Positions 27,307 to 40,830 are shown, counted from the first letter of the stretch. The stretch is DNA of 64,000 nt from an uncultured Solirubrobacterales bacterium (GCA_963697655.1 CAVOOV010000014.1:38118-102117); one strand, 5' to 3'. The notes: generated by a model from the sequence alone, not told the origin. Made by a program: numbers and translations.

Positions 27307-30300
27307 CTACCCGACCGTGTAGCTGTAGGGGAGTGTCGCGAGCTCGTCGCCGCTCTGTTGGCCGGTGACCGGTGGCGGAACGTTGTTGTCGAAGTCATCG
27401 ACGTACAGGTTCCCCGAAACCACCGTGCCGCTGGCGGCACTCGGCGTGATCGTCACGTTGACTGTCGCGGTCTGCCCGGGATTGATCACCACCGGCGAGA
27501 ACGAGGTCGCCGGGTTGATCGAGGCCGCCTCGATGTCCCCGGTGGCCGAGGTCACCGCTGAGTCGAACGGCTTGGTCTGAGCCGTCATCGCCACTGACGC
27601 GGTGCCCGCGGGCGCGGGACCCGGATACGGGCCGCATTCGGACGGCGAGGCGAACCAGAACCCTGCGGTGACGAGGCCGCCCGGCGGTGTGTCGCTACCC
27701 GACGATGTGGTCGAGCAGAGTGATGCGGCCCCGGGGGCGTGGCTGGACAGATCCGGGTCGCCGGCGAACGGCCCGAAGTCGAACATCGTCGGCAGGCTCG
27801 ATGTCTGACTGACGCTGACGCTCGACGTCTGGGTCGGGACAAACCAGACCGGGCTCGCCCCGACGTTTGGCAGGACGATTCCGCTGGCCGGCGCAAACGG
27901 GGCGAGGGTTACCGACGTCGACCCGTTCAACCGTGGGTCGACGAAGTAGTCCTCCGGCGCGACTCCGGTGTTGGTGATCTGTACCGGCACGGTCACCGGC
28001 GTCCCCGCCGCGAGTTTCGTGGCCGCGCTGTTTGGTAGCCCGGCCGCGCTGACCTTCGACGGCGTTGAAGCGGATGTCTCCGGTGTACGGCTCGGAGATC
28101 TCGTTCCCCACGACCGGCTCGGAGAAGTCGACGACGAGCGTCCACGTGCCGGGAGCCGGGTTCACAGCGTTGGCGGTGAGTGCCGTCAGCGAGGTGCCGT
28201 TGAGCGAGTTCTGCCCGTACCCGAGCGTGTCCCCGTCGGGGCTGATCAGGTACGCCCCGATCGGATCGGTCGGATCGTTGGCGATCGACACGTCCGCGCT
28301 GATGTCGCGGACTCCGGCGGGCACGTTGAACTCGTAGTACTGCTGCTGGCCCTCACCGTTCGGGCGACCGTTGCCACCGGTCAGCACGCCCGAGAAGGAA
28401 CCCGAACGCTTGTTGCCGGGCTCGACCAGGCTGCGCAGCGTCACCGGAATCGAGGTCGATCCGCCGAAGCCGAAGTCCGACCTCAGCACGATCGAGCCCG
28501 CCGCGTCGCCCGGGGACGACGGGGTGGTGGCGCTGACCGTCACCGTCCGGCTCTGGCCGGGAGCCAGCAACAGCCGGCTCGGGGACACGGACGCGAACGG
28601 CACGAACTGCTCGGTGGCCATGCGCCAGGGGACAGCTCCGTTGGTTCCGGCGTCGGCGGCTACGTCGCCGAAAATCACTCCGGTCCACGTACCGGAGGTC
28701 GGGAAGCGGACGTCGACGCTGCCGAAGTTGCCGGGTCCCTGCGGCAGCGAGTGCGCCGCCAACCGGCCGCGCGGATCGATCAGGATCAGCCGCACGCGCG
28801 AGTTGTTCCCGTTCGCCGGGTTCCCCGGCCAGGCGAGCTGACCGGCCAACCTGTCGGCCCCGGGCCGGACGTTGAAGTGGAACACCCCGTAGTTGTTCTG
28901 GAGTCCCTGGTAGTTGGCGAACTGCGGGCTCGTGCCGTCGGTCAACGTGACGCTGCCGGTCTGGACGTTCTGGTCTGAGCCGAATGTCCGGCCGCTCAGG
29001 TTCACGAGCTGCAAATGCCGGCCCGTATTGGTGACGTTGACGTTCCAGCGCTCACGCGACCCGGGGCCGTCTACCGCGTTCAGCTGATTGGCCGAGGTCA
29101 GCAGCGTGTTGCCGGTCGGCCTGGGGGAGCCGTCCGGCGTGCGGATCGACTCGGCCAGCTGAACGGCCTTGTAGGAGTTCATGAGTCCCGCGCCCTGCTC
29201 CGCGGCGGGTGTGCCGAGGTCGGTGGCGGTGCTCACGATGATCTGCTTGACCAGGGCCGGGGTCGGCGTGGCGCCCCCGTGGGTCTGACGATAGGCCTGG
29301 ATGACCAGAGCCGCCTCGCCGGCGACGAACGGCGAGGACTCGCTGGTACCACCGCTCTCCTCGATGTCCGACGACTGGCCCTTGAGGTTGATGCACCCAG
29401 CGAAGATGGCGCTGGCGTCGCAGGAGGCGAAGCTGAGGTCGCCCGGAGCGACCAGGCTCACGGTGCCACCGGTCTCGTTGAACCCACCGGAGCTGAGCGA
29501 GCTGATGTTGTCGTTCAACCAGCCGCTGGTGGCGAAGTAGCGAGCGGCGGCGTAGTTCGTCTGGGCGTAGAAGCGGAAGTCGGTTGACGCGCCCACCGAG
29601 ATGAGGTTCGGGTCCGTCGAGGGCGAGCCGATCGTGTTGAAGTTGCCGGCATCGCCGGAGGAGACGCTGACCACGACGCCCGCCGCGACGGCGGCGTTGT
29701 CGAACTGCGCGGTGGCATCGAGCGCGCTCACGTCGGGGAACGGGTTCGAGCCGAAGGACTCGTTGATCACGTTGACGTGGTCGGTCTCGACCGCGTAGTT
29801 GATCGCCTGCAGGAAGTTGGAATTCGTGGTGTCCTCGAATGAGCCGAACACGTCCAGGCCGACGAGGCTCGCGCCCGGAGCAACGCCCTCGATGCGGATG
29901 TTGCAGGCCGACGGATCCGGCTGGGCGCTGAACCCGTTGACGTCGTACGTGTGGAGCCCCTGGCCGGCGATCGTGTTGGCGTCGAGGAACGCCTCGTCGC
30001 CGCTGGTGACCTGACCGGGGCCGTCGCCGGTGAAGTCCTGGTAGTCGCTGAACGCCGACGCGTTGTTGGGCCGGATGAAGTTGACGTTGTTCGGATCGAT
30101 GCCGTCGGCGATCCAGGCGACCTTCACGCCGGCGCCGGTGATGCCGAGCGATCGGGCGGTCGGCTGGCGCGGGTTGTCGGAGTCGGTGTTGGTGAGCGAC
30201 AGGCCTTCCGGATCAAGTTGTGGCTTGCCGGCGGAGCAGGCGCCCGGGATCACGTTGGGCGTGAGCGTCGTTGCCTGGTGCGACTTCAGCTTGTGAGAGG

Positions 30301-30766
30301 AAGCGGTTGGCACCTGGGCCGGCGCCGCGCCCTGAATCGTGACGTCGGGGATGACCTCGGCCACCGCGGGATTTGCCCTGAGCCTTGCCGCCTCACCCTT
30401 CGAGACCGCGGCCGCGAACGCGTCGACGAGCTGGAACGTCTTGATGTGCGTGGCGTGGACCGCACGCAGCTCGCTGATCAGTGGCGCCTGGGTGGCCTCG
30501 ATCGCGTCGGCGCGCCGCGCCGCCGCACTACTCCCGACGTGGGCAGCCGCGGGCTGGCTCTTCAGGATCACGATCACGTGCTGATTGGCGTTCTGCGAGA
30601 GCCGCCTCGCCAGCGCCGGCGTCAGCGGCCCGGAGGTGGCTGTGGGGGCGGCCGCCACCGACTGCGCCCCGATCGCGGCCGGCACCCCGACCGCCATCGC
30701 CAGCAAGGCGATCGTCTTCTTTCGTGCACACGCCAGCCGTACGACACCCGCAACACGTGATCGCAT
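27307..30766 (-). CDS. Large secreted subtilase-clan protease (I9-like prodomain, S8/S53 catalytic domain, beta-sandwich tail); frameshift near 28060
   Basis: Signal peptide, [34 protein letters not shown]; C-terminus continues in ORF 27307..27996. Confidence 0.88.
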
Positions 30767-30930
30767 ACCTTGGACCCTCCTCCAGTGGTGACTGCTGCTA
30801 CCGCCGCGCCACACACAGCTCCCCCGAGTGGGCAGCACGGCCGATGTTCCGCGAACCTACCACCTGCCAGGGGCGGACGACCGCGTCGTTCACTTCAGTT
30901 GTTGAAGCATTGCGCTAAACTGGGCAAAAG

Positions 30931-31308
30931 ATGGCTACAAACGACACATGTCCGGTCTGCCGCACGGCGGAGATCGTGTGCGGCAAGTGGACGCTGCTGG
31001 TGATTCGCGATCTGGCCGAGGGCCGGTCGCGCTTCTGTGAGCTGGAGCGCTCGCTGCGCGGGATCAGTCCGCGGACGCTGTCGCTGCGGTTGCGCGCGCT
31101 CGAGGAGGAGGGGGTCGTCGAGCGTCAGACGTTCCCCGAGGTGCCTCCCCGGGTCGAGTATGCGCTCACCGACAAGGGCCGCGCGCTCGTGCCGCTGATC
31201 GAGGACATGCGCGCCTACGGGCTCCAGTGGCTGTTCGAGGACTGCGACGAGCCGAGCCCGGATGACGCGCCCGACGACGCTCGCGAGCCCGCTGTCGCCG
31301 CGGCCTGA
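30931..31308 (+). CDS. HxlR-family transcriptional regulator
   Basis: CPV, GKWTLLVI, ISPRTLS.RLR.LE, VPPRVEYALT. Confidence 0.93.
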   Translation: MATNDTCPVCRTAEIVCGKWTLLVIRDLAEGRSRFCELERSLRGISPRTLSLRLRALEEEGVVERQTFPEVPPRVEYALTDKGRALVPLIEDMRAYGLQWLFEDCDEPSPDDAPDDAREPAVAAA

Positions 31309-31317
31309 CCGCCGCGC

Positions 31318-31764
31318 ATGCGGATCGCGGTCGCCGCGGATGAGCTGACAGGCGTCGCGCGGGCGCTCCCCGAGGAGCTTCGCCGGCGCGGTCACGAGCC
31401 GTTGCTCCACGGCGCCTACGCGGACGCAGAGCGGCCCGACTGGGCGTGGGCGAGCGAGGCTGCGGCCCGGGACGTCGCCGACGGCAGGGCCGAGCAGGCG
31501 ATCGTCGCGTGCTGGACCGGAACCGGCGCGTCGATCGCGGCGAACAAGGTGCCGGGGATCCGCGCCGCGCTGTGCGCCGACGCGCCGACCGCGGAGGGCG
31601 CGCGCCGGTGGAACGACGCCAACGTGCTCGCGCTCAGCCTGCGGGCAACCTCTCAAGCCGAGCTCGAGGAGATCCTCGACGCCTGGTTCGGGGGCAGCTC
31701 GAGCGCCGAGCCCGACGACGTCCAGAACATCGCGCATCTGGCCGAGATCGAGCGCTCGCCCTAG
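31318..31764 (+). CDS. RpiB/LacA/LacB sugar-phosphate isomerase
   Basis: CWTGTG, ANKVPGIRAA, WNDANVL. Confidence 0.92.
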   Translation: MRIAVAADELTGVARALPEELRRRGHEPLLHGAYADAERPDWAWASEAAARDVADGRAEQAIVACWTGTGASIAANKVPGIRAALCADAPTAEGARRWNDANVLALSLRATSQAELEEILDAWFGGSSSAEPDDVQNIAHLAEIERSP

Positions 31765-31777
31765 CGGCGACGCGGCC

Positions 31778-32880
31778 TCAGCGCACGACGACGAACGTGC
31801 CGGACCCGATCATGTGGCCGTAGCGGCCGGCCTTGCGCCGTCCGAAGCCGGGCCAGACGTACCATCGGTACTTGCCGGGCTTGAGCCGGTAGCGACGTCC
31901 CTCGAATTTCCATGTGCGGCGAAGCTGGAGGCCGGCGTGCGTCGGCCACATGCTGAGCACCTTGCCGCCCCGGAACAACTGCACGTTGTAGTAGGTAGCG
32001 CTCGGGGCGGCGGTCCAGCTCAGCATCGGTGGCGCGCTCAGGTGCGCGTTCGGCGCGGGGCCGAGAAGTCGCGGTCCGGGGGTTGCCTTGATCGTCTGCG
32101 CCGCCACGTTGCCCGCCTGATCGCGCGCAGTGATCGTGTACGTGTAGTGGACGCCGTTGCTCACGTGGTCATCCGTAAATCCGGTTCCGTTGCCGGAATA
32201 GACGGCGTGGGCGCTGGCAGCCTTCGCGCCGTCGGTCCGAGTGACTTGGATCGAGGCGAGCGGAGCGACGTCCCCGCCGGCTTGCCAGCTCAGCGCGACG
32301 CTCTTGTCGCCCGGATCCGCGGTGGCGGTCAGCGTTGGCGGCGTCGCGTCGTAGGCGAACGGCGCGCTAGCGACAGTCACGGACTTGCCTGCGTTGTCGA
32401 CGCAGGTCCCGGCCACGGTGGCGCTGGCCGTGGCGGGGCCGGCGTATGTCGTGGAGGTGCACGACGCGATGCCGGAGAATGAGCTGCCCTGGAACGCGAA
32501 GGCGACCGGGGCGTCGTACCAGCCGTTGGAGTCGGGAGGGCGGGACGGGGTCGCGGTGGCGGTGGGGGAGGAGGTTTCGACCTTGATTGTGTACGGCTGA
32601 ATGATGGTTGGACCGGCAGTCGGTCCAGTGACTTCGCACGGACACCGTTACGATTGGTATTGGATGCGTACGTCGTCTGGATGCAGCTTCCTGGAGTGGT
32701 TCGGCGGTCCATGTGCCAGCTGAGGTTCACAGGCGCCGTGTACCAACCGCCGGTGCATGGCTGTGCGGCCGCCTGGCCAACTGCGCACATGGGCGTGATG
32801 GTGTCCGCCGACGCCACCGACGCCGTCGTCAACGACACCGCGACGGCGACCAGTGCCACCGCCACCGCACGACGCCTCAT
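31778..32880 (-). CDS. Secreted beta-sandwich (Fn3/Ig-like) protein; frameshifts near 32610-32710
   Basis: Signal peptide, repeated GWY motif, Fn3-like LSW...YTYTITARDQAGN. Confidence 0.7.
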
Positions 32881-33554
32881 GACAGCTCCAGTCGTCGGAG
32901 ACGCCGCAGCAACGCGAGGCTCGCCACCGCGAGTACCGCCATCGCGAGCGAGGTGAGCAGGAGGAGCACACCGCCGCGATGCCCGGTCTCACCGCTGTGA
33001 AGCGCCCGATCGGGCAGCAGCAGCAAGTCCTTGGGCCAGGACAGGGGGAACGACAACCGCGTGGCTCCCGATCGCGCGCGACGCGGAGCGGAAGTGCGAG
33101 CGGCATGAACGTGCGGACGCGACGTGGGTCGTCCCGACCGCGCGCGCGGCGTCCTCGACGCAACGATCTTTGCTGCGGGTGTGCTGACCGTCCTCGCCGG
33201 CGTAACGACAACCGGCGCGCGGATCGCCGGCGCAACGACCGCGGGTACGCGGATCGCCGGCGTGGTGGAGGTCGACCGATGCGGCGCGGGCGCGGTGGTC
33301 GTGGCCTGCGGGGCGGGGTCCGGCGTTGGCTGACTCGCTGAGCCGGACGTCGGCGCCCTCTGGGGGGCGGGCCCGGAACCGTGTTCCCGAGTCGCAGCTG
33401 CCGCGCCGGCAGCGGCCGGCCAGCTCGAGGCGACAAGGACGAGAATCACCGTCCCGCAGATGCGGGCAATGATGCGAGCGGCCCAAGAAACAGCGTCCGA
33501 CTGCCCCCGGCGCCGCCGCCCGCCCCACGAACGGATAAGCAACGGGCCTTCCAT
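32877..33554 (-). CDS. Pro/Ala/Thr-rich exported protein with C-terminal TM anchor
   Basis: N-terminal hydrophobic segment; C-terminal hydrophobic helix followed by RRLRR; 4-bp overlap with the next gene. Confidence 0.6.
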   Translation of the reverse strand: MEGPLLIRSWGGRRRRGQSDAVSWAARIIARICGTVILVLVASSWPAAAGAAAATREHGSGPAPQRAPTSGSASQPTPDPAPQATTTAPAPHRSTSTTPAIRVPAVVAPAIRAPVVVTPARTVSTPAAKIVASRTPRARSGRPTSRPHVHAARTSAPRRARSGATRLSFPLSWPKDLLLLPDRALHSGETGHRGGVLLLLTSLAMAVLAVASLALLRRLRRLELS

Positions 33555-33605
33555 CTTCTACGTATCGCTAGCTAAACCGCACCATACGCCGCATGCCTCT
33601 CTAAA

Positions 33606-35393
33606 TCAACGCTCCGACCTGCCTGCTGTTTGCGTCCACATCACCGTCAGTGCCACCAACACTGCCGCCGCGACGAGCAGCAGCGCCATCGCTGCAGGGT
33701 CACTCGACGCGCGAGGGCCGTCCGCGCGTGCCTCGGCCACTCGTATCGGGGGGTGCCCCTGGAGTCCGGTCGCCGCCTGCCGCGACCGGCGCCGGCTCGA
33801 CTTGACGACGGATTCGATCGAGGGATGAACGGCCGCCGTCGACGTTCTCGACGTCTGCGCCCACGCGAGCGCCAAGGTCGCTTCCCGGACCGGCGCTGCC
33901 GGCGCGACCGGCGCGACCGGCGCGATCAGGCCGGACACGGTGGCTCCCGCAAAGGCAGCCGTGCTGAACAGCCGAATGCGCCGCGTGGGCGATCCATTGG
34001 GCTCCGGCGGCCCTGGCACGGTCTGCGACGCGGATCTGGTCGAGGACGGTTGCCCGGCGATCGGTCCCGTCTGCTGAGCCGGCGCGGTAGGGCCGGGCGC
34101 GGGCGGTGTCGGGGGTGGCGCTGGTGAACCCGCAGGTGCGGGGCTCTCGTCGACGATCACCGTGCTCTGCCCGGTGACGACCTGCGTCTGGGTCGCGTCG
34201 TAGCACCAGGCGACGCAGCCGACCTGCACCTGCCAGATGATCTGATCGGTCACGTCGACGGCGCCGGGATTCGAGCCGGTCGCGCCGGCCTGTACGTTGA
34301 TGATCGTGATCGATTGCTGCGCTTGCTGGACCTGCTGGGTGTCGACGCAGTAGAAGACGCAGCCGATCTGAAGCTGCCATGTGCCCTGCTGCGCTTCGGC
34401 GACGGACTGAGGCGTGGGTGGTTGCGACACTGTTGCGTCATCCGTGACCTGGACGGTGGTGGCGCTTTGGGAGGCGACCTCAGTCTGCGTCGCGATCGCC
34501 TGAGCGGCCTGAACCTGACACGCCACTTGATCGACGATGCCCTCCACGGTTGCCGCCGTCGGCTGCATGGTCGACGAGCCGCAAGCCGGCTGCGACGCGT
34601 CGAGGTTCTGGAGTAGCTGCGTGAGCGCGGCCGCGGACGGATCGGTCGTGGTCGTGCCGAAGCATTCTGTAACGCAGCCGATCTGGATCTGCGTCACGCT
34701 GCTCGTCACCTGCGACGAGGACTTCGGCGACGGCGCCGTGTCGAGGGCGGTCGCCGACTGCAACGCCGTCCCCGCAACCTGCACGGTGACGCTTTCCTGG
34801 ATGGCCACCTGAACCTGGCTGACGTGCTGGCAGTGCGACGTACAGCCTGAAATCTGCACCTGCGAAATCGACTGGCTGGTGGTGGTCGACTCGACCGGCG
34901 CGGGGGGCGGCGTGGTTCCCGCCGGCGGCATGCCGGGGTTCGGCAGAGCTGGAGGTGTCTGACCGGGCGGGTCCGAGGGTGGGGTTGGGGTCGGCGCCGG
35001 CTGGCCCGGTGTGGTGGGCGGCGCGGCGGGGTTGGATGGTGGCGTCGTCTGGTCGGGTGGTGGCGGCGTCTGGTCGGGCGAAGCCGCGGCGGTGGGGATC
35101 GGCGGCGGGGTCACCGGCAGGGCCGGCGGCGAAGTCGCGTCGGTCGGCGCCGGGGGTGGCACGACCGCCGTGCCGGCGGCCTCAGGCGGGGAGGTTGCCG
35201 TCGGCTGCGATCCGGGGCCGTTGTCGCTCGTCGAGGCGGGCGGAGCCCCAGCCTGACTCGGGGTGCCTGCCGTCGCCGGCGAGGTGCCGACCGCGAGGGG
35301 GGCCTGATCCGCGCGCGCATGAGCCGCCGCGGCTAGCGCCACGACGATCGTGGTCAGGACCAGTCCGAGCTTTGCCGTGTTGAGGGATCGCAT
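33606..35393 (-). CDS. Secreted, membrane-anchored protein with Pro-rich stalks and four Q-rich GCxxxC repeats
   Basis: Signal peptide ending AHARA; QVQISGCTSHC, QIQIGCVTEC, QLQIGCVFYC, QVQVGCVAWC; C-terminal TM. Confidence 0.8.
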   Translation of the reverse strand: MRSLNTAKLGLVLTTIVVALAAAAHARADQAPLAVGTSPATAGTPSQAGAPPASTSDNGPGSQPTATSPPEAAGTAVVPPPAPTDATSPPALPVTPPPIPTAAASPDQTPPPPDQTTPPSNPAAPPTTPGQPAPTPTPPSDPPGQTPPALPNPGMPPAGTTPPPAPVESTTTSQSISQVQISGCTSHCQHVSQVQVAIQESVTVQVAGTALQSATALDTAPSPKSSSQVTSSVTQIQIGCVTECFGTTTTDPSAAALTQLLQNLDASQPACGSSTMQPTAATVEGIVDQVACQVQAAQAIATQTEVASQSATTVQVTDDATVSQPPTPQSVAEAQQGTWQLQIGCVFYCVDTQQVQQAQQSITIINVQAGATGSNPGAVDVTDQIIWQVQVGCVAWCYDATQTQVVTGQSTVIVDESPAPAGSPAPPPTPPAPGPTAPAQQTGPIAGQPSSTRSASQTVPGPPEPNGSPTRRIRLFSTAAFAGATVSGLIAPVAPVAPAAPVREATLALAWAQTSRTSTAAVHPSIESVVKSSRRRSRQAATGLQGHPPIRVAEARADGPRASSDPAAMALLLVAAAVLVALTVMWTQTAGRSER

Positions 35394-35495
35394 TGGGTGT
35401 CTCAGCGGGGGCCCGGCCGGCGCGTATCTGGCGCCGGCCGGGGCCGCGGTTTCTGCGCTCGAGACCAACGCGTCACCGTTGGCGGAGCGCCTCTA

Positions 35496-37208
35496 TTAGG
35501 TGCTGGTCTGGGTCTGCGTTCCGTTCTGCGTGGTGTTCGCGTTGTTGCCGGCGAAGCTGAGTGCGCCGTTGAGCGCGAACTGGTTGGCGCTGTTCGAGCC
35601 GCCCGAGATATTCCCGGCGGCGATGTTGACCGGGACGTTGGCGTTGACCGCGGTCTGGTTTGCGTTGGCGCACGAAGCCGCCAATTGACCAGTGAGCGCC
35701 TCCTGATCGCTCAGCTGCGCTTGACCGGCCCCGCCGCAGCCCCACTGGCAGCTGGAGCCGGCGGTTTGGGCCTGGGTGTTGTTTTGCGTGGTGTTGGCGT
35801 TGTTGCCGGCGCCGCTGGCAGCTCCGTTGATCGCGCCCTGGTTGGCGCTGTTGGAGCCGCCCGAGATGTCACCGGCGGCGATGTTGACCGGGACGTTCGC
35901 GTTGACCGCGGTCTGGTTGGCGTTGGCTGTCGAGAACGCTCCCTGGAGCGTCGCCGCGCTCTGACCCGAGGCCTGGAACTGGCCCGCACCGCCGCAGCCG
36001 ACCTGGCAGTTGGAGCCGGCCGTCTGCGTCTGGGTGTTGTTCTGGGTCGTGCCGGCGTTGTTGCCGGCACCGCTCAGCGCGCCGTTGCCGGCGAGCTGGT
36101 TGGCGCTGTTGTTACCGCCGGAGACGTTCCCGGCGGCGATGTTGACCGGGACATTCGCGTTGACCACGGTCTGGTTGGCGTTCGCCGAGGATCCCGCGAG
36201 CTGACCGGTCACCGCCTGCTGCCCGCTCAGTTGGGCTTGACCGGCCCCGCCGCAGCCCCACTGGCAGCTGGAATTGGCGGTTTGGGTCTGGGTGTTGTTC
36301 TGGGTGGTGTTGGCGTTGTTGCCGGCGCTGCTCAGCGCGCCGTTGCCGGCGAGCTGGTTGGCGCTGTTGGTGCCGCCCGAAACGTTGCCGCCGGCAATGT
36401 TCACCGGAACGTTGGCGTTCACCGCGGTCTGGTTGGCGTTCGCCCCCGACAGCGCTCCCTGGAGCGTCGCCGCGCTCTGACCGGCCGCCTGGGCCTGGCC
36501 GGAGCCGCCGCAGCCGACCTGGCAGTTGGAGCCGGCCGTCTGCGTCTGGGTGTTGTTCTGGGTGGTGCCAGCGTTGTTGCCGGCGCCGCTCAGCGCACCG
36601 TTGCCGGCACCCTGGTTGGCGCTGTTGCTGCCGCCTGACGCATCGCCGCCCGACGGGCTGCCGCCGGTGGTGCTCGGCGCATTGCCGTTGACGGCCGTCT
36701 GGTTGGCGTTCGCCGATGATCCGGCCAGCTGGCCGGTCACGGACTTCTGGCTGCTCCCTTGTGCCTGTCCAGGTCCGCCTCCACCGATCGCTGCACCGGC
36801 GCTGGCGGTCTGGGTCTGGGTGTTGTTCTGGGTCGTGTTGGCGTTGTTGCCCGCGCCGCTGACCGCTCCGTTGATCGCGCCCTGATTGGCGCTGCTGGAG
36901 CCGCCCGTGGGCGTGCCGCCCATGGGCCCACCCATCGGCTTTCCGCCCATCGGCGTGCCGCAGCCACACGGCTTGCCACCGCCTGAGGGCTGACCGCCGG
37001 CGACGCTCACCGGCGCGTTCGAGTTGGTGGCAGTCTGCTGGGCGTTCGCGCTCGAGAGCGCACCCTGCAGCGTTGTCGCGGCCTGACCCGCGAACTGTGC
37101 TTGACCGAGGCCACCGGCCCCGGCGCTGCCTCCACCGTCAGCCATCGCCTGCGCCGGTATGGCGAGCGCGACGATGCTGACGGCGGCAGCGATCAATTTC
37201 GATCTCAT
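35496..37208 (-). CDS. Secreted N/Q/G/A-rich repeat protein (six ~86-aa repeats), candidate functional amyloid subunit
   Basis: AAGGAG RBS, Sec signal ending AMA, 258-bp DNA periodicity. Confidence 0.88.
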   Translation of the reverse strand: MRSKLIAAAVSIVALAIPAQAMADGGGSAGAGGLGQAQFAGQAATTLQGALSSANAQQTATNSNAPVSVAGGQPSGGGKPCGCGTPMGGKPMGGPMGGTPTGGSSSANQGAINGAVSGAGNNANTTQNNTQTQTASAGAAIGGGGPGQAQGSSQKSVTGQLAGSSANANQTAVNGNAPSTTGGSPSGGDASGGSNSANQGAGNGALSGAGNNAGTTQNNTQTQTAGSNCQVGCGGSGQAQAAGQSAATLQGALSGANANQTAVNANVPVNIAGGNVSGGTNSANQLAGNGALSSAGNNANTTQNNTQTQTANSSCQWGCGGAGQAQLSGQQAVTGQLAGSSANANQTVVNANVPVNIAAGNVSGGNNSANQLAGNGALSGAGNNAGTTQNNTQTQTAGSNCQVGCGGAGQFQASGQSAATLQGAFSTANANQTAVNANVPVNIAAGDISGGSNSANQGAINGAASGAGNNANTTQNNTQAQTAGSSCQWGCGGAGQAQLSDQEALTGQLAASCANANQTAVNANVPVNIAAGNISGGSNSANQFALNGALSFAGNNANTTQNGTQTQTST

Positions 37209-37358
37209 GCTGCTTCGTTCTCCTTGGTTGAGGTGGATCGCCGCGCTCGCACTGCTCACTGAGCAGCGGCGATGACCTGGCCGAGCCCGCTAAGTCGAGA
37301 GGGACTCGGTGACGACCGCCTCACGTCGGCGACCGTCGCTTGCACCGACCCAGCGGCG

Positions 37359-38321
37359 CTAACCAGGCCGTTCCAACCTCGAGACGAGGAACGCCGATCG
37401 CGCTGGGGCAAGCCCCAGGCCTAAGAGCCCCGGCAACAAGGCTCGAAGAATGCACAGGCCGCCGAAAGCGAGGAGAGCCGCGGCGGCCGCGCCCGCTCCT
37501 CCGCCTCCGGCGCCCGCGGCGCTGCCCTCCGCTCCGCCTGGCGGCAGGGCTGGCGAGAGTGGGACTGCCAGCGGCGCCGTCGTCACCGCGACGCCCGGAC
37601 GGGATCGACGCGGGTCGAGATGACGTCGGCGCCCGGGTTCGCTGCGCGAGTCCGCGCGACGAGCCGGCACAGCCGGCTGCGTGCCGCGCCGGCTCGTCGC
37701 CACGAGCACCAGCACTGGCGACCACGGGCGGGCGACGGCGGAGTGCGCGACGGGAGCGCGCCCTGTCGATCCCGCCGGCCGAGCCGACGTTGCGACTGGG
37801 CGATGAGCTCGTGGATGCGCGAAGCGATGGGCGCGCGTCCGGCCTCGTGGCGTCCGGTCGGACCGGGCCGTGCGCGACGTGGTCGATTCGGTGCCGACAG
37901 CCTGCCCCGCGTCCGGCTGGGGCACGGGCCCCGCGAGCGCGCTCACCGACTGCTCCACGGCCCCGGCAGTCGAAGGCGCCGGCGCCGCGGGTGCGGGGTT
38001 TTCCGGCGCGGGCTGTGGGGTGGGCCGAGCCACGACGGGCACGGGCGGCACCGCGGGCGGCGCCACCACAGGCGCCGCCGGCGGCGAGCCAGGCTGGGCT
38101 CCTCCAGATGCTCCGGCGCCGCTCGCCGACGGGATTTGAGCGAGCGCCGCGGACACGGCGCTCTGCGCTGGCGCGGGAACCAGGGCAGCGAGCTGGCTCA
38201 GCGCGGCGGAGCCGGGACTGGCGGCCTCCGCCCCGGTCGGCACGATCAGCGCAAGCGTGAGAAGCGCCGTCGCGAGCGCCCCCAACAAGCCCCAAGACTT
38301 TCGAATCAGATGATCAGCCAT
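37359..38321 (-). CDS. Pro/Ala-rich exported protein with C-terminal hydrophobic segment, ends LERPG
   Basis: Signal peptide ending AEA; low-complexity body. Confidence 0.65.
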   Translation of the reverse strand: MADHLIRKSWGLLGALATALLTLALIVPTGAEAASPGSAALSQLAALVPAPAQSAVSAALAQIPSASGAGASGGAQPGSPPAAPVVAPPAVPPVPVVARPTPQPAPENPAPAAPAPSTAGAVEQSVSALAGPVPQPDAGQAVGTESTTSRTARSDRTPRGRTRAHRFAHPRAHRPVATSARPAGSTGRAPVAHSAVARPWSPVLVLVATSRRGTQPAVPARRADSRSEPGRRRHLDPRRSRPGVAVTTAPLAVPLSPALPPGGAEGSAAGAGGGGAGAAAAALLAFGGLCILRALLPGLLGLGLAPARSAFLVSRLERPG

Positions 38322-38445
38322 GATCAGCTTCTGCTGGTTAATGTCTCGCCGACGCCCAGATCCGATCCAAGAAACCCTGGGTATCACTCGTTATCTCTGT
38401 ACCTTCCTCGGTGATATCGGTCGCAGAAGGGGCACGGCGACATCG

Positions 38446-39516
38446 GTGAAAAAGCTCATTTCCCGGCGGGCGGCAGCGCCGCCAGAGGGCTCGAACGGTC
38501 CGGGTCTTCCCGACGCCGAGAAGGACGCGATGGTGCGCTCGCACCTCCCGCTGGTGCGGGCGATCGCACGGCGCTACGCGGGCCGGGGAGAGGAGCTCGA
38601 TGACCTGGTCCAGGCCGGCTCGGTCGGGCTGGTCAGGGCGTCAGCCCGCTTCGACCCGGGCCGTGGCGTCGCCTTCGCGACGTTCGTGGGACCTGCCGTC
38701 GAAGGTGCGATCCGGCGGCATCTGAGCAAGCGCCGAGGTGGCGTGCAGCTGCCGCCCAAGGCGCAGTGGACGAGCGCGGACTCGCCCGTGCTCGAGGCGA
38801 GCGACGCAGCCGTTGACGGGTCGCGCGAGCCCAAGTCTCTCGTCGAGAGCGAGCACCGCATGCTGCTCGCAGGGGGTTTCCGCGCGCTGGATGAACGGGA
38901 GCGTCAGATCGTGTTTCTCCGCTTCAACGCCGACATGACCGAGCGTCAGATCGCGACGGCTGTCGGCATCTCGCAGGCACACGTCTCGCGACTACTCGAC
39001 GGCGCCCTGACCAAGCTCCGGGCCGAGCTCAGCTCGGCGGACTCCGTAAAGGGGGCTGATACCACGAAATCTCAAGCGATATCACGCCCCAAAGCGCCGG
39101 AAATTGCGAGGACAGAGACTAGAATCGAGGGCGTGGGCGCAGAGAAGGAGAGCGTGGGCGCGCAACCGGACAAGGCCACGCGACATGGCAACGGTCGGTC
39201 TCCGAAGACGAGCTACAGCGGCCGGTTCCTCGTTCGGATGCCGAGCGAGCTTCACGAGCAGCTCACGCTTGCTGCCGAGCGCGACGAGATCAGCCTCAAC
39301 CGGTACGTAACCGACGCGCTCTCGACCTCCGTCGGCGTGGCCTCATCGGACCGAGCGAACTCCCCACCCGGAGCACCTGGCGCCGCAGACTCGGCCAAGG
39401 ACCGGAGAGCGACCCGGACGCTCAGGATGGCCCTCGCGACGAACGTCGCGCTCGTGATCGTTGCGGCCGTTATCGCCCTCGTGCTGCTGGTGCTCGCGTT
39501 GCAGCGCGGGATCTGA
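38446..39516 (+). CDS. Alternative sigma-70 factor (regions 2 and 4) fused to a HicB-like RHH domain and C-terminal TM
   Basis: HLPLVRAIARRY, DLVQAG..GL, LDERERQIVFLRF, ISQAHVSRLL; YSGRFLVRMPSELH...SLN; terminal hydrophobic helix. Confidence 0.88.
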   Translation: MKKLISRRAAAPPEGSNGPGLPDAEKDAMVRSHLPLVRAIARRYAGRGEELDDLVQAGSVGLVRASARFDPGRGVAFATFVGPAVEGAIRRHLSKRRGGVQLPPKAQWTSADSPVLEASDAAVDGSREPKSLVESEHRMLLAGGFRALDERERQIVFLRFNADMTERQIATAVGISQAHVSRLLDGALTKLRAELSSADSVKGADTTKSQAISRPKAPEIARTETRIEGVGAEKESVGAQPDKATRHGNGRSPKTSYSGRFLVRMPSELHEQLTLAAERDEISLNRYVTDALSTSVGVASSDRANSPPGAPGAADSAKDRRATRTLRMALATNVALVIVAAVIALVLLVLALQRGI

Positions 39517-39579: not shown

Positions 39580-40830
39580 GTGCGCAACGGAACGCTCCAC
39601 GGGGTAATCGAGGCGTTCGCGACGGAGGCGGCGATGGTGCTATGCGCCGAGACCGCATCCGGCGCGGAGGTCCCGTTCGAGCTGGTCGACGCGGCCGGCG
39701 GTCCCCGTGGCCGTGTCCCCCTGTACTGCTACCGGCCGCTGACCGATCCGTTCATCCGCGAGCGGCTCGGGTTGCTCTCAGGGCTACCCACCTACGCCCC
39801 TGCGGTGCGTGCGGTGAGCAGCCTCGAGGGCGTCGACGCGTACCTGCGCCAGCGCGGGGAATCGCGCGTCCCGTCCGAGCGGCGCGAATGCGCCGACGCC
39901 GCGCTGCGCACGTTCCTGTCCGTGCTGTACGACGAACGCAGCGAGTTCTCGTTCGACCCCGATCGGTTTGAAGTCGCCTACGACGAGCTCGAGCAGGCGC
40001 TGTACGAGGGTCGCGCGGTGACGACGGTCGTGGCGCCGCTGCTGGGGATCGCGCTCGACACCGAGACGACTGAGATCGCGCTCGGCGAGGGACTCGCGCT
40101 CGTCCGAGGTGACGCGCTCGACGACGCGCCGCCCGACGCGGTCTGGGGCGACGCCGAGGAGCCTCACGTGCTCGCGGTGCTGACCGTGGCCCAGGATCGG
40201 GCTGCGCCGGCGCCGGTGTCGGTTGCGCGCGTCCGCTTTCGGCGCACACTGACCGCGCTGCGGTTGTTCGAGCGCGGCGGGTTCGCGCTCGGCCCGGTGG
40301 CGTGGACGCGGATCGATGCCGGAAGCTGGCGCTCGGTGCCGCTCGGCGGCAGCGGCCGGCCGCGCCTGACCCGACATATACCGGCCGCGCAGGAGGACGA
40401 GCTGCGGGCGTTCTGCAACCTGGTGGCGCGGCGCACCCCGAGGGGCGGGGAGACAGCGTGGGCCCTGGCCCGGTTCGAGATGGGCTGCGAGCGCCTGGCG
40501 CCGTTCGAGGCGCTGACCGACTATCTGCTGGCGCTGAGGGCGCTGCTGGAGCCCGAGGGCCCCGCGAGCGGCCGCCTGGCCGGCCGTCTGGCCGCGATCT
40601 GCGCCCGGCCCGAGGACCGGGCAGCGGTAGCCGAGCGCACGGCGCATGCGATCTCGCTCGAGCGGGCGGTGATCGCCGGCCTCGCCCCGGCACAGACCGG
40701 CGTCGACGCGCTCGTCGAGGAGCTCGCCGAGCAGCTGCGGGCGCTGCTCAGAGATGTCCTGTGCGGCCACCTCGAGCCCGACCTGTGCTCGGTCGCCGAC
40801 GACCTGCTGGCGGCGCCTTCACCGCTTTAG
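39580..40830 (+). CDS. Conserved hypothetical protein with an Apea-like HEPN-type C-terminus
   Basis: Strong coding bias; LTDYLLALRALLE...LAGRLAA helix pattern; no RxxxxH motif. Confidence 0.7.
   Translation: MRNGTLHGVIEAFATEAAMVLCAETASGAEVPFELVDAAGGPRGRVPLYCYRPLTDPFIRERLGLLSGLPTYAPAVRAVSSLEGVDAYLRQRGESRVPSERRECADAALRTFLSVLYDERSEFSFDPDRFEVAYDELEQALYEGRAVTTVVAPLLGIALDTETTEIALGEGLALVRGDALDDAPPDAVWGDAEEPHVLAVLTVAQDRAAPAPVSVARVRFRRTLTALRLFERGGFALGPVAWTRIDAGSWRSVPLGGSGRPRLTRHIPAAQEDELRAFCNLVARRTPRGGETAWALARFEMGCERLAPFEALTDYLLALRALLEPEGPASGRLAGRLAAICARPEDRAAVAERTAHAISLERAVIAGLAPAQTGVDALVEELAEQLRALLRDVLCGHLEPDLCSVADDLLAAPSPL

Follow-up and report, generated by a model that had tools for sequence, protein, structure and literature searches.

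Five co-oriented genes for exported proteins and a sigma factor gene that faces them on the opposite strand occupy positions 31778-39516 of a 64,000-nucleotide stretch of DNA from an uncultured Solirubrobacterales bacterium (GCA_963697655.1, CAVOOV010000014.1:38118-102117; the whole stretch is referred to as the window) and, as judged from sequence, this cluster is a genuine surface-protein module that is conserved in Thermoleophilia, has an unusual regulator and had not been described before. The overall account favored here, to which we assign a probability of roughly 0.45, is that of a dedicated cell-surface structural module in which the second of the five proteins stacks into fibers and the third is the anchor. 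The linkage of the genes, the export signals of their products and the beta periodicity of the repeat protein are the observations that carry this account, and we infer the remaining steps from them. An amyloid nature of the repeat protein is plausible, as far as its predicted structure can tell.

The five minus-strand genes are named P1 to P5 in their order from the sigma side. The G+C content of the region is ~70%, and its composition is the same as that of the flanks. Its features are the following:

37359-38387 (alternative start ATG 38321), minus strand: P1, by open reading frame and translation
35496-37208, minus strand: P2, by open reading frame and translation
33606-35393, minus strand: P3, by open reading frame and translation
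32877-33554, minus strand: P4, by open reading frame and translation
31778-32880, minus strand: P5, by three-frame reading; frame broken
38446-39516 (likely start GTG 38446; reading frame open from 38320), plus strand: sigma factor, by Pfam
35405-35490, minus strand: two GC-rich stem-loops in the P2-P3 gap, by RNA folding
34119-34898, minus strand: CxxxC beta domain of P3, residues 191-450, by alignment and AlphaFold2 (AF2)

All five minus-strand products begin with a hydrophobic segment of the signal-peptide type, and P1, P3, P4 and the sigma factor carry a transmembrane segment at the C-terminus (hydropathy scans). LPxTG is absent from P1-P5; the few matches to a loose pattern (L[PA]x[TSA][GAS]) are of the LAGSS, LAAAA or LAVAS type and mostly internal, and no sorting motif is found at the C-terminal transmembrane segments of P1, P3 and P4. 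This picture agrees in most parts with an original prediction made for this DNA, which had described five co-oriented exported proteins facing a sigma factor (now supported by reading frames, hydropathy and Pfam), among them an N/Q-rich repeat protein (P2, with a 258-bp tandem repeat, 14% N and 11% Q), an anchored GCxxxC-repeat protein (P3, with four CxxxC motifs and its C-terminal transmembrane segment) and a Pro-rich anchored protein (P4, Pro/Thr-rich with a signal anchor and a C-terminal transmembrane segment). It had recognized no named family, which holds for P1-P4, none of which matches a family in Pfam or NCBIfam, and for the P2 profile, which has no sequence match in the PDB at E <= 10; nor was a clear match to a known non-fibrillar family found. 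The dedicated regulator that it proposed is present as a co-conserved, divergently transcribed sigma factor, and the genes are conserved together; the linkage of the sigma factor with the operon is kept across families of Thermoleophilia.

Conservation of the cluster

The full set of genes is syntenic in three other genomes of the genus (25 were searched, the window genome included). The order is also kept on Solirubrobacterales contigs with a P3 that is just 32-40% identical: the gene for the sigma factor with its HicB-type domain is followed, divergently, by a P1-sized gene (absent from L015; L-numbers denote comparison loci), P2, P3, a P4-sized gene and P5. Two additional genera of this order retain the neighborhood of P2 and P3, with resolvase-domain proteins in the place of the sigma factor and a PKD-repeat protein in the place of P5. 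The P2-P3 loci L014 (13919-15228, 6673-8946) and L025 (4819-6069, 9954-12398) are of this kind, with resolvase-domain (Pfam Resolvase 1.2e-24) and PKD-repeat proteins, and a serine recombinase beside a surface-protein gene could point to phase variation as one possibility. The next gene at these loci, read by eye, starts like a Ser/Thr protein kinase.

Beyond the order, the P2 profile matches 20 of 301 genomes of the class, mostly in two other families, and in these two families eight of the nine best sigma matches lie 2-4 kb from the P2 homologue on the opposite strand and in divergent orientation. A coupled pair of P4-like and P5-like genes is found 3' of P2 in L030. P3 was detected in 3 of 251 genomes of the order and is limited to part of it, and the distribution of P2, P4-P5 and the sigma factor is class-wide. 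By gene content, then, the conserved core of the module is the sigma factor, the tail-anchored HicB-type protein and P2, joined at several loci by P4 and P5.

Could the genes be neighbors by chance or through shared ancestry, without any joint work? Close relatives do keep synteny over the whole region, including the unrelated genes for HxlR, RpiB, an S8 peptidase and a 416-residue protein, as would be expected in that case. However, the links between the sigma factor and P2 and between P2 and P5 persist in other families with different flanks, and the adjacency of P2 and P3 persists where resolvase-type proteins replace the sigma factor, which makes a chance neighborhood most improbable.

The arrangement of the cluster also holds a hint on relative expression. 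The 102-nt gap between P2 and P3 contains two GC-rich stem-loops (-59.5 kcal/mol, z -5.06; none of 200 shuffled sequences folds as well), the second of which (35405-35447) has a perfect 12-bp GC stem and no U tract. A strong hairpin of differing sequence is found in the same place in L008, L009, L010, L016, L025 and L014, making seven loci with the window. The hairpin after P2 probably ends or stabilizes most transcripts, which would fit the gene of a major subunit.

Repeats and predicted fold of P2

The tandem repeat in the P2 gene comprises 4.3 copies (score 1257, Tandem Repeats Finder, TRF), and the protein consists of six units of ~86 residues, of which the first two are degenerate and four carry a CQxGCGG turn. 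After the signal peptide the composition is 19% G, 18.5% A, 14% N, 11% Q, 10% S and 9% T, with just 12 charged residues in the reading frame of 587 residues and almost no large hydrophobic residues. The first degenerate repeat holds a Gly/Pro/Met-rich insert with a CGC motif, encoded by a 15-bp micro-repeat (TRF; window 36900-36961, residues about 100-120), that no later repeat contains and that could serve as cap or linker. The family has more than 430 metagenomic members and, in a set of 1.84 billion representatives, forms 560 clusters at 50% identity; lengths reach about 1160 residues and the number of repeats varies widely. None of the homologues carries an informative name, no Pfam domain is fused to any of ten long ones (843-1161 residues), and a Pfam scan of 60 homologues returned scattered low-complexity matches alone, for example to Agd3_C and SH3_7. 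The literature search yielded no publication on the P2 family and none that connects Solirubrobacterales or Thermoleophilia with amyloid. Some genomes (G388, G468) encode two P2 paralogues in tandem.

What does the pattern of conservation say about the structure of these repeats? In 184 distinct 88-residue repeats of P2 homologues, conservation alternates with a period of two along each of the two long segments (permutation p < 0.0002), a pattern that directly supports, at the level of sequence, two long beta strands with two faces in every repeat. The conserved face is made up of A, Q, G, S, T and N, and the opposite face is variable. In most of the family (P0001-P0120) this variable face is hydrophobic in strand 1, with I, L, V or W, and acidic in strand 2, with D, E or K; the subfamily of the window has N, G, A and T in place of these residues and is nearly free of charge. 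In the turns, positions with Cys, Gly and Pro are invariant.

The AF2 model of P2, computed with 60 homologues, has two strands of 29-33 residues and one short strand per repeat (mean predicted local distance difference test score, pLDDT, 72.4; predicted template modelling score, pTM, 0.57). In an exhaustive structural alignment its top 50 neighbors are all parallel beta-helices. The best superpositions are with flattened helices of the SufBD type (Z 8.3, 8.1 and 7.9; root-mean-square deviation, rmsd, 3.1-3.4 Angstrom over about 175 residues), followed by the curli subunit CsgA (Z 7.4 for 8c50 and 6.9 for 8enq, weak scores for a predicted model, at an rmsd of 7-8 Angstrom) and a flat insect antifreeze solenoid (Z 6.6), all of them within the range, Z about 8 or less, that the alignment tool classes as a common arrangement. 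Foldseek against the PDB returned nothing at E <= 0.001, with structures of FapC at rank 3, and a shape search of the ESM Atlas gave template modelling scores of at most 0.29. The model is thus a flattened two-sheet beta-solenoid with one rung per repeat, and this fold class is likely for P2. Two other ideas about these strands were rejected: ice binding by the T-Q-T-Q-T stretches, because the alternate positions (N, A, T, Q, Q, Q) are the conserved ones and the other face varies between homologues; and a barrel of the outer-membrane type, suggested by Atlas shape matches to SusC and PorV (template modelling scores below 0.3), because hydrophobic residues are few and the structural search gives parallel beta-helices.

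It could be imagined that the solenoid is an artefact of modelling near-identical repeats and that P2 has no stable fold at all, being instead a secreted low-complexity N/Q/G-rich protein that forms a matrix or gel. AF2 is known to over-predict beta-solenoids for repeat proteins, giving confident but unrealistic models on such sequences (PMC11795689). One of the five models of P2 reaches a pLDDT of 72 and the other four have 46-67; in the ESM Atlas feature search recognition of P2 was low (1283), with clusters that are all unnamed and actinobacterial, and no Foldseek match is significant. Against such a protein speak the strict alternation of conserved and variable positions over two segments of ~25-30 residues, a mark of two-faced beta strands and not of disorder, and the invariant Cys, Gly and Pro of the turns. 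Moreover, the repeats of P3 are not near-identical and are nevertheless modelled as stacked hairpins with a pTM of 0.73. An unfolded P2 is therefore considered improbable.

If P2 is a solenoid, does it polymerize? Many of the neighbors of the model are monomeric beta-helix adhesins or enzymes (TPS domains, autotransporters, RTX blocks, SufBD), the repeat number varies among homologues as it does in adhesin stalks, and the two degenerate first repeats could serve as a cap. P2 might accordingly be a monomeric beta-solenoid that acts as a coat protein or adhesin, held by P3 or P5 and forming neither fiber nor amyloid. Yet six rungs with strands of ~30 residues would leave very large unsatisfied beta edges in a monomer, and a capping or partner domain is absent in all homologues examined. 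In addition, a charge near zero and an interior of Q, N, A, S and T are typical of stacking cross-beta proteins and not of soluble beta-helices. We regard a non-polymerizing P2 as unlikely, though by no means negligible.

P3, the accessory proteins and the sigma factor

P3 runs from a signal peptide and a Pro-rich stalk through a beta domain, in which four hairpin turns have the form WQxQxGCxxxC (the CxxxC motifs lie at residues 209, 265, 370 and 418), to a second Pro-rich stretch and a C-terminal transmembrane anchor (residues 592-610 by hydropathy). This architecture is shared by 106 homologues, which belong, where named, to Solirubrobacterales or Solirubrobacteraceae; none of the eight cysteines varies in an alignment of 33 homologues, nor do many of the glutamines. 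AF2 models the beta domain (pLDDT 78.5, pTM 0.73) as stacked hairpins whose strands are 13-17 residues long, with CxxxC in a well-modelled turn. The best neighbors of this model by two methods are CsgA (Z 3.2) and FapC (Z 3.1), all weak, and Foldseek against the PDB gives E 0.18 or worse, hence nothing at E <= 0.001.

The original prediction had seen in P3 a nucleator related to P2. What stands of this claim is the CxxxC-turn motif common to both proteins; homology does not follow from the comparison of their profiles, in which hhalign finds a single match of 48 columns (probability 20%, E 0.0011) that aligns TxQxxQxQ, CxxxC and GxQxQxxQxxTxQ. The likeness is treated here as a motif shared by Q-rich sequences, at the level of the motif only.

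The remaining exported proteins differ in how widely they are kept. P1 is Pro/Ala-rich as predicted originally, but it is not a leader: a basic middle part lies between its N-terminal signal segment and a transmembrane segment at the C-terminus, and it is thus an anchored protein. Orthologues in L008 and L009 are about 60% identical, and a gene of similar size is found in the P1 position in L016 and on the contig carrying P0209. Because it is missing in L015, P1 is placed outside the core as a dispensable, lineage-specific protein. P4 is small, basic and Pro/Thr-rich, with an N-terminal signal anchor and a conserved C-terminal motif followed by a transmembrane segment, and its aligned orthologues include one of another family (L030). 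The stop codon of P4 and the start of P5 overlap by four bases (32877-32880).

P5 is a secreted multidomain protein of Ig-like type with a very basic C-terminal domain. Its earlier description as an Fn3/Ig-like protein holds for export; the Fn3/Ig label rests on sub-threshold Pfam matches (Big_13 0.005, fn3 0.08). In this assembly the gene is interrupted, one frame encoding the signal peptide (32377-32880) and another the Ig-like portion (31778-32416). A DNA alignment with the intact orthologue of L009 places indels near 32630-32660. Orthologues are intact in L009 and L015 and frameshifted at other places in L008 and L016. Contigs of four soil runs barely cover the divergent stretch, the sole bridging contig, from a relative, having 248 nt against 238 nt, and the frameshift could be either an assembly error or a real defect. 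In the ESM Atlas P5 has a recognition of 2880, with unnamed Actinomycetota proteins as top clusters at 0.97, and thus counts there as a real protein family. P5-like proteins occur in one to three copies per genome; in all four other genomes tested one copy adjoins P2, and in three of them this is the best-scoring copy.

The sigma factor has an unusual architecture, in which regions 2 and 4 (Pfam Sigma70_r2 3.8e-19, Sigma70_r4 4.3e-12) are followed by a ribbon-helix-helix (RHH) domain of the HicB type (HicB 3.2e-13; 49.8 bits versus a cut-off of 21, profile positions 9-51) and a C-terminal transmembrane helix (residues 376-394 by hydropathy). Pfam finds no match to Sigma70_r3. The protein passes the general sigma-70 superfamily model TIGR02937 (95.4 versus 42.9 bits), and its best family is SigB/SigF/SigG (TIGR02980), where it stays below the cut-off with 131.8 versus 234.35 bits and matches in two stretches. 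No HicA-like gene adjoins the sigma gene, and the protein is not assigned to the HicAB toxin-antitoxin systems. The sigma factor and the HicB-type protein with its transmembrane helix are fused into one protein in the window, L015 and L016, and are two adjacent genes in other families of the class (L026 6170-7305, L028 6085-7067, L024 16339-17311). Since proteins that are separate elsewhere are fused here, the two evidently work together, and their union in one protein hints that they are direct partners in function, be it through membrane tethering of the sigma factor or through an anti-sigma-like role. A published description of a sigma-HicB fusion was not found in the literature search. The arrangement resembles the partner-switching and membrane-anchored anti-sigma systems of SigB, SigF and SigG in the best fit of regions 2 and 4 and in a membrane-bound partner. 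It differs from them in that all scores are under the family cut-offs, that the partner is a tail-anchored RHH protein of the HicB type and that no gene for an anti-sigma factor of the RsbW/SpoIIAB type or for an anti-anti-sigma factor is nearby.

Sporulation sigma factors are among these closest families, and an accessory, patchy cluster with a dedicated regulator is what would be expected of a conditional trait. The module might thus, instead of a biofilm fiber of growing cells, provide resting or developmental cells with a coat, similar to that of a spore or cyst and controlled by a SigF-like factor, a proposal that concerns the role of the module and is compatible with P2 as a fiber or as a monomer. 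The sigma scores, however, all lie under the equivalog cut-offs, and the flanks hold no other sporulation or development genes but HxlR, RpiB, an S8 peptidase and a conserved protein of unknown function. We know of no resting stage described for cultured Thermoleophilia. On this evidence a resting-cell coat appears rather improbable.

The flanking genes are an S8 subtilase with an I9 propeptide (27695-30838, minus strand), HxlR (30931-31308) and RpiB (31318-31764), which likewise lie beside the cluster on the distant contig carrying P0209. On the other side, next after the sigma gene, follows a gene for a cytoplasmic protein of 416 residues without a family (39580-40830, plus strand) that is 79-90% identical in congeners and 71% in L016, a conservation far above that of the surface genes. 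As a member of the system it was rejected, because it stands beside the sigma gene only in closer relatives and is absent at the equivalent position in L015 and in other families.

Proposed assembly and relation to known fiber systems

How could the parts act together at the cell surface? In the account favored here, the tethered sigma factor would drive the divergent operon and the five products would leave the cell through the Sec pathway. P2 would be the abundant product, with the stem-loop after its stop codon keeping P3-P5 at smaller amounts. Each ~86-residue repeat of P2 is envisaged as one rung of a flattened two-sheet cross-beta solenoid, with an interior in which small and polar residues (A, Q, N, S, T, G) form a ladder and with one arc of the rung closed by the CxxxC turn. 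A solenoid of only six rungs would present two large open edges, and end-to-end stacking of P2 into extracellular fibers or sheets is therefore most likely. P3, tethered to the membrane through its C-terminal helix and spanning the wall with its Pro-rich stalks, would present a short hairpin stack with the QxQ...CxxxC...QxQ turn that P2 also has. It would be the anchor and probably also the template or seed for P2, and the conserved cysteines might staple the turns or link P2 to P3 by disulfide bonds. The translationally coupled P4 and P5 are thought to form a conserved accessory pair in which the basic C-terminal Ig-like domain of P5 may bind wall polymers or cap the structure, and P1 would be a lineage-specific extra.

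Several observations weigh against this account. A promoter motif tying the sigma factor to the operon was not found: a scan for the sigma-70 consensus gave no site, the SigF/SigB-like motif G[GT]TT-N13-19-GGGNA is absent upstream of P2 in 17 loci, and alignment of the upstream regions with 6-mer enrichment recovered the ribosome-binding site only. The sequencing runs that contain the locus are DNA from soil and peat metagenomes, none of them RNA. In the model of P2 the CxxxC turns have a pLDDT below 50, and the low structural alignment scores and the bias of AF2 toward solenoids described above bear on the fold as a whole. The cluster is patchy, being present in 4 of 25 genomes of the genus. 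Most P2-bearing genomes outside the order are without P3, and therefore a P3 template cannot be essential to P2 generally. The restriction of the likeness between P2 and P3 to a motif and the apparent frameshift of P5 in the assembly belong to the same side of the balance.

Among known systems the module would work most like curli, by analogy and not as a member of the curli family. As in curli, P2 is a secreted subunit with imperfect repeats, a predicted two-sheet beta-solenoid and an interior of N/Q and small residues, and a second, cell-bound protein, P3, carries a related motif; CsgA is, if weakly, near in fold to both models. The curlin kernel has been described as N-$-Psi-$-Psi-$-Q (PMC10192328), a form also taken by N-x-A-x-T-x-Q in the strands of P2. 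Nevertheless, Curlin_rpt (PF07012) is found neither in P2 and P3 (hmmscan, E <= 0.1) nor in the 60-member P2 alignment (E <= 0.01), and Pfam detects no family of the CsgG, CsgE or CsgF type in any gene between 27695 and 40830. The P2 rung has 86-88 residues versus about 22 in curli and contains CxxxC turns, the proposed anchor is integral to the membrane and is set on Pro-rich stalks, and a tethered sigma factor takes the place that CsgD has in the regulation of curli.

The Fap system of Pseudomonas (FapC/FapB) likewise combines a repeat-bearing secreted subunit with a minor related subunit in one operon, and FapC structures are the top Foldseek matches of the P3 model and rank 3 for P2, all insignificant (E 0.18-1.2, VIA Z 3.1); in contrast, there is no sequence similarity and no outer-membrane channel of the FapF type in the cluster. 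Chaplins and rodlins of Streptomyces, the functional amyloids known from actinobacteria, come from the same phylum as the module. They, too, are exported by Sec, have conserved cysteines and play a structural part at the surface under an alternative developmental program. Chaplin domains are hydrophobic and about 40 residues long, and the long forms are anchored by sortase, whereas P2 is large, hydrophilic, N/Q-rich and without LPxTG; the chaplin domain (DUF320/ChpA-C) was found neither in P1-P5 nor in the members of the P2 alignment. The TasA/TapA/SipW system of Bacillus subtilis is another Gram-positive fiber operon with a major subunit and a protein for anchoring and assembly that is associated with the wall or membrane. 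TasA, however, is a globular donor-strand fiber subunit and not a repeat solenoid, the cluster has no dedicated signal peptidase, and none of its proteins matches the TasA family in Pfam or NCBIfam. The beta-helix of SufB/SufD, finally, gives the best superposition of the P2 model, a likeness that is geometric only and in the range of common arrangements; it is a cytoplasmic scaffold for Fe-S assembly, unrelated to P2 in sequence and context.

A more far-reaching version of the favored account, which we put forward tentatively and which is on balance doubtful, would make P2 and P3 a new class of Gram-positive functional amyloid that is widespread in soil Thermoleophilia. It would be built of giant cross-beta rungs of 86-88 residues, with a column of CxxxC turns, spaced at the rung repeat, for disulfide stapling, covalent attachment to the membrane-anchored template or metal binding along the fiber, and would be controlled by a sigma factor tethered to the membrane through its RHH domain.

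Among the actinobacteria of soil, Thermoleophilia (Solirubrobacterales, Gaiellales) are abundant; few of them have been cultured, and to our knowledge almost nothing is known about their cell-surface biology. The module is a defined, conserved and testable candidate for a surface or matrix structure of these bacteria. The SigF-like factor with its fused, tail-anchored RHH protein suggests that sigma factors can be controlled or localized in a manner not described so far, and the conserved cysteine turn invites study of redox-controlled or covalently anchored assembly. If P2 does polymerize, a family unrelated in sequence would join the short list of bacterial functional amyloids, and no earlier one would combine a monoderm host with a membrane-anchored template. 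Its rung would be about four times that of curli.

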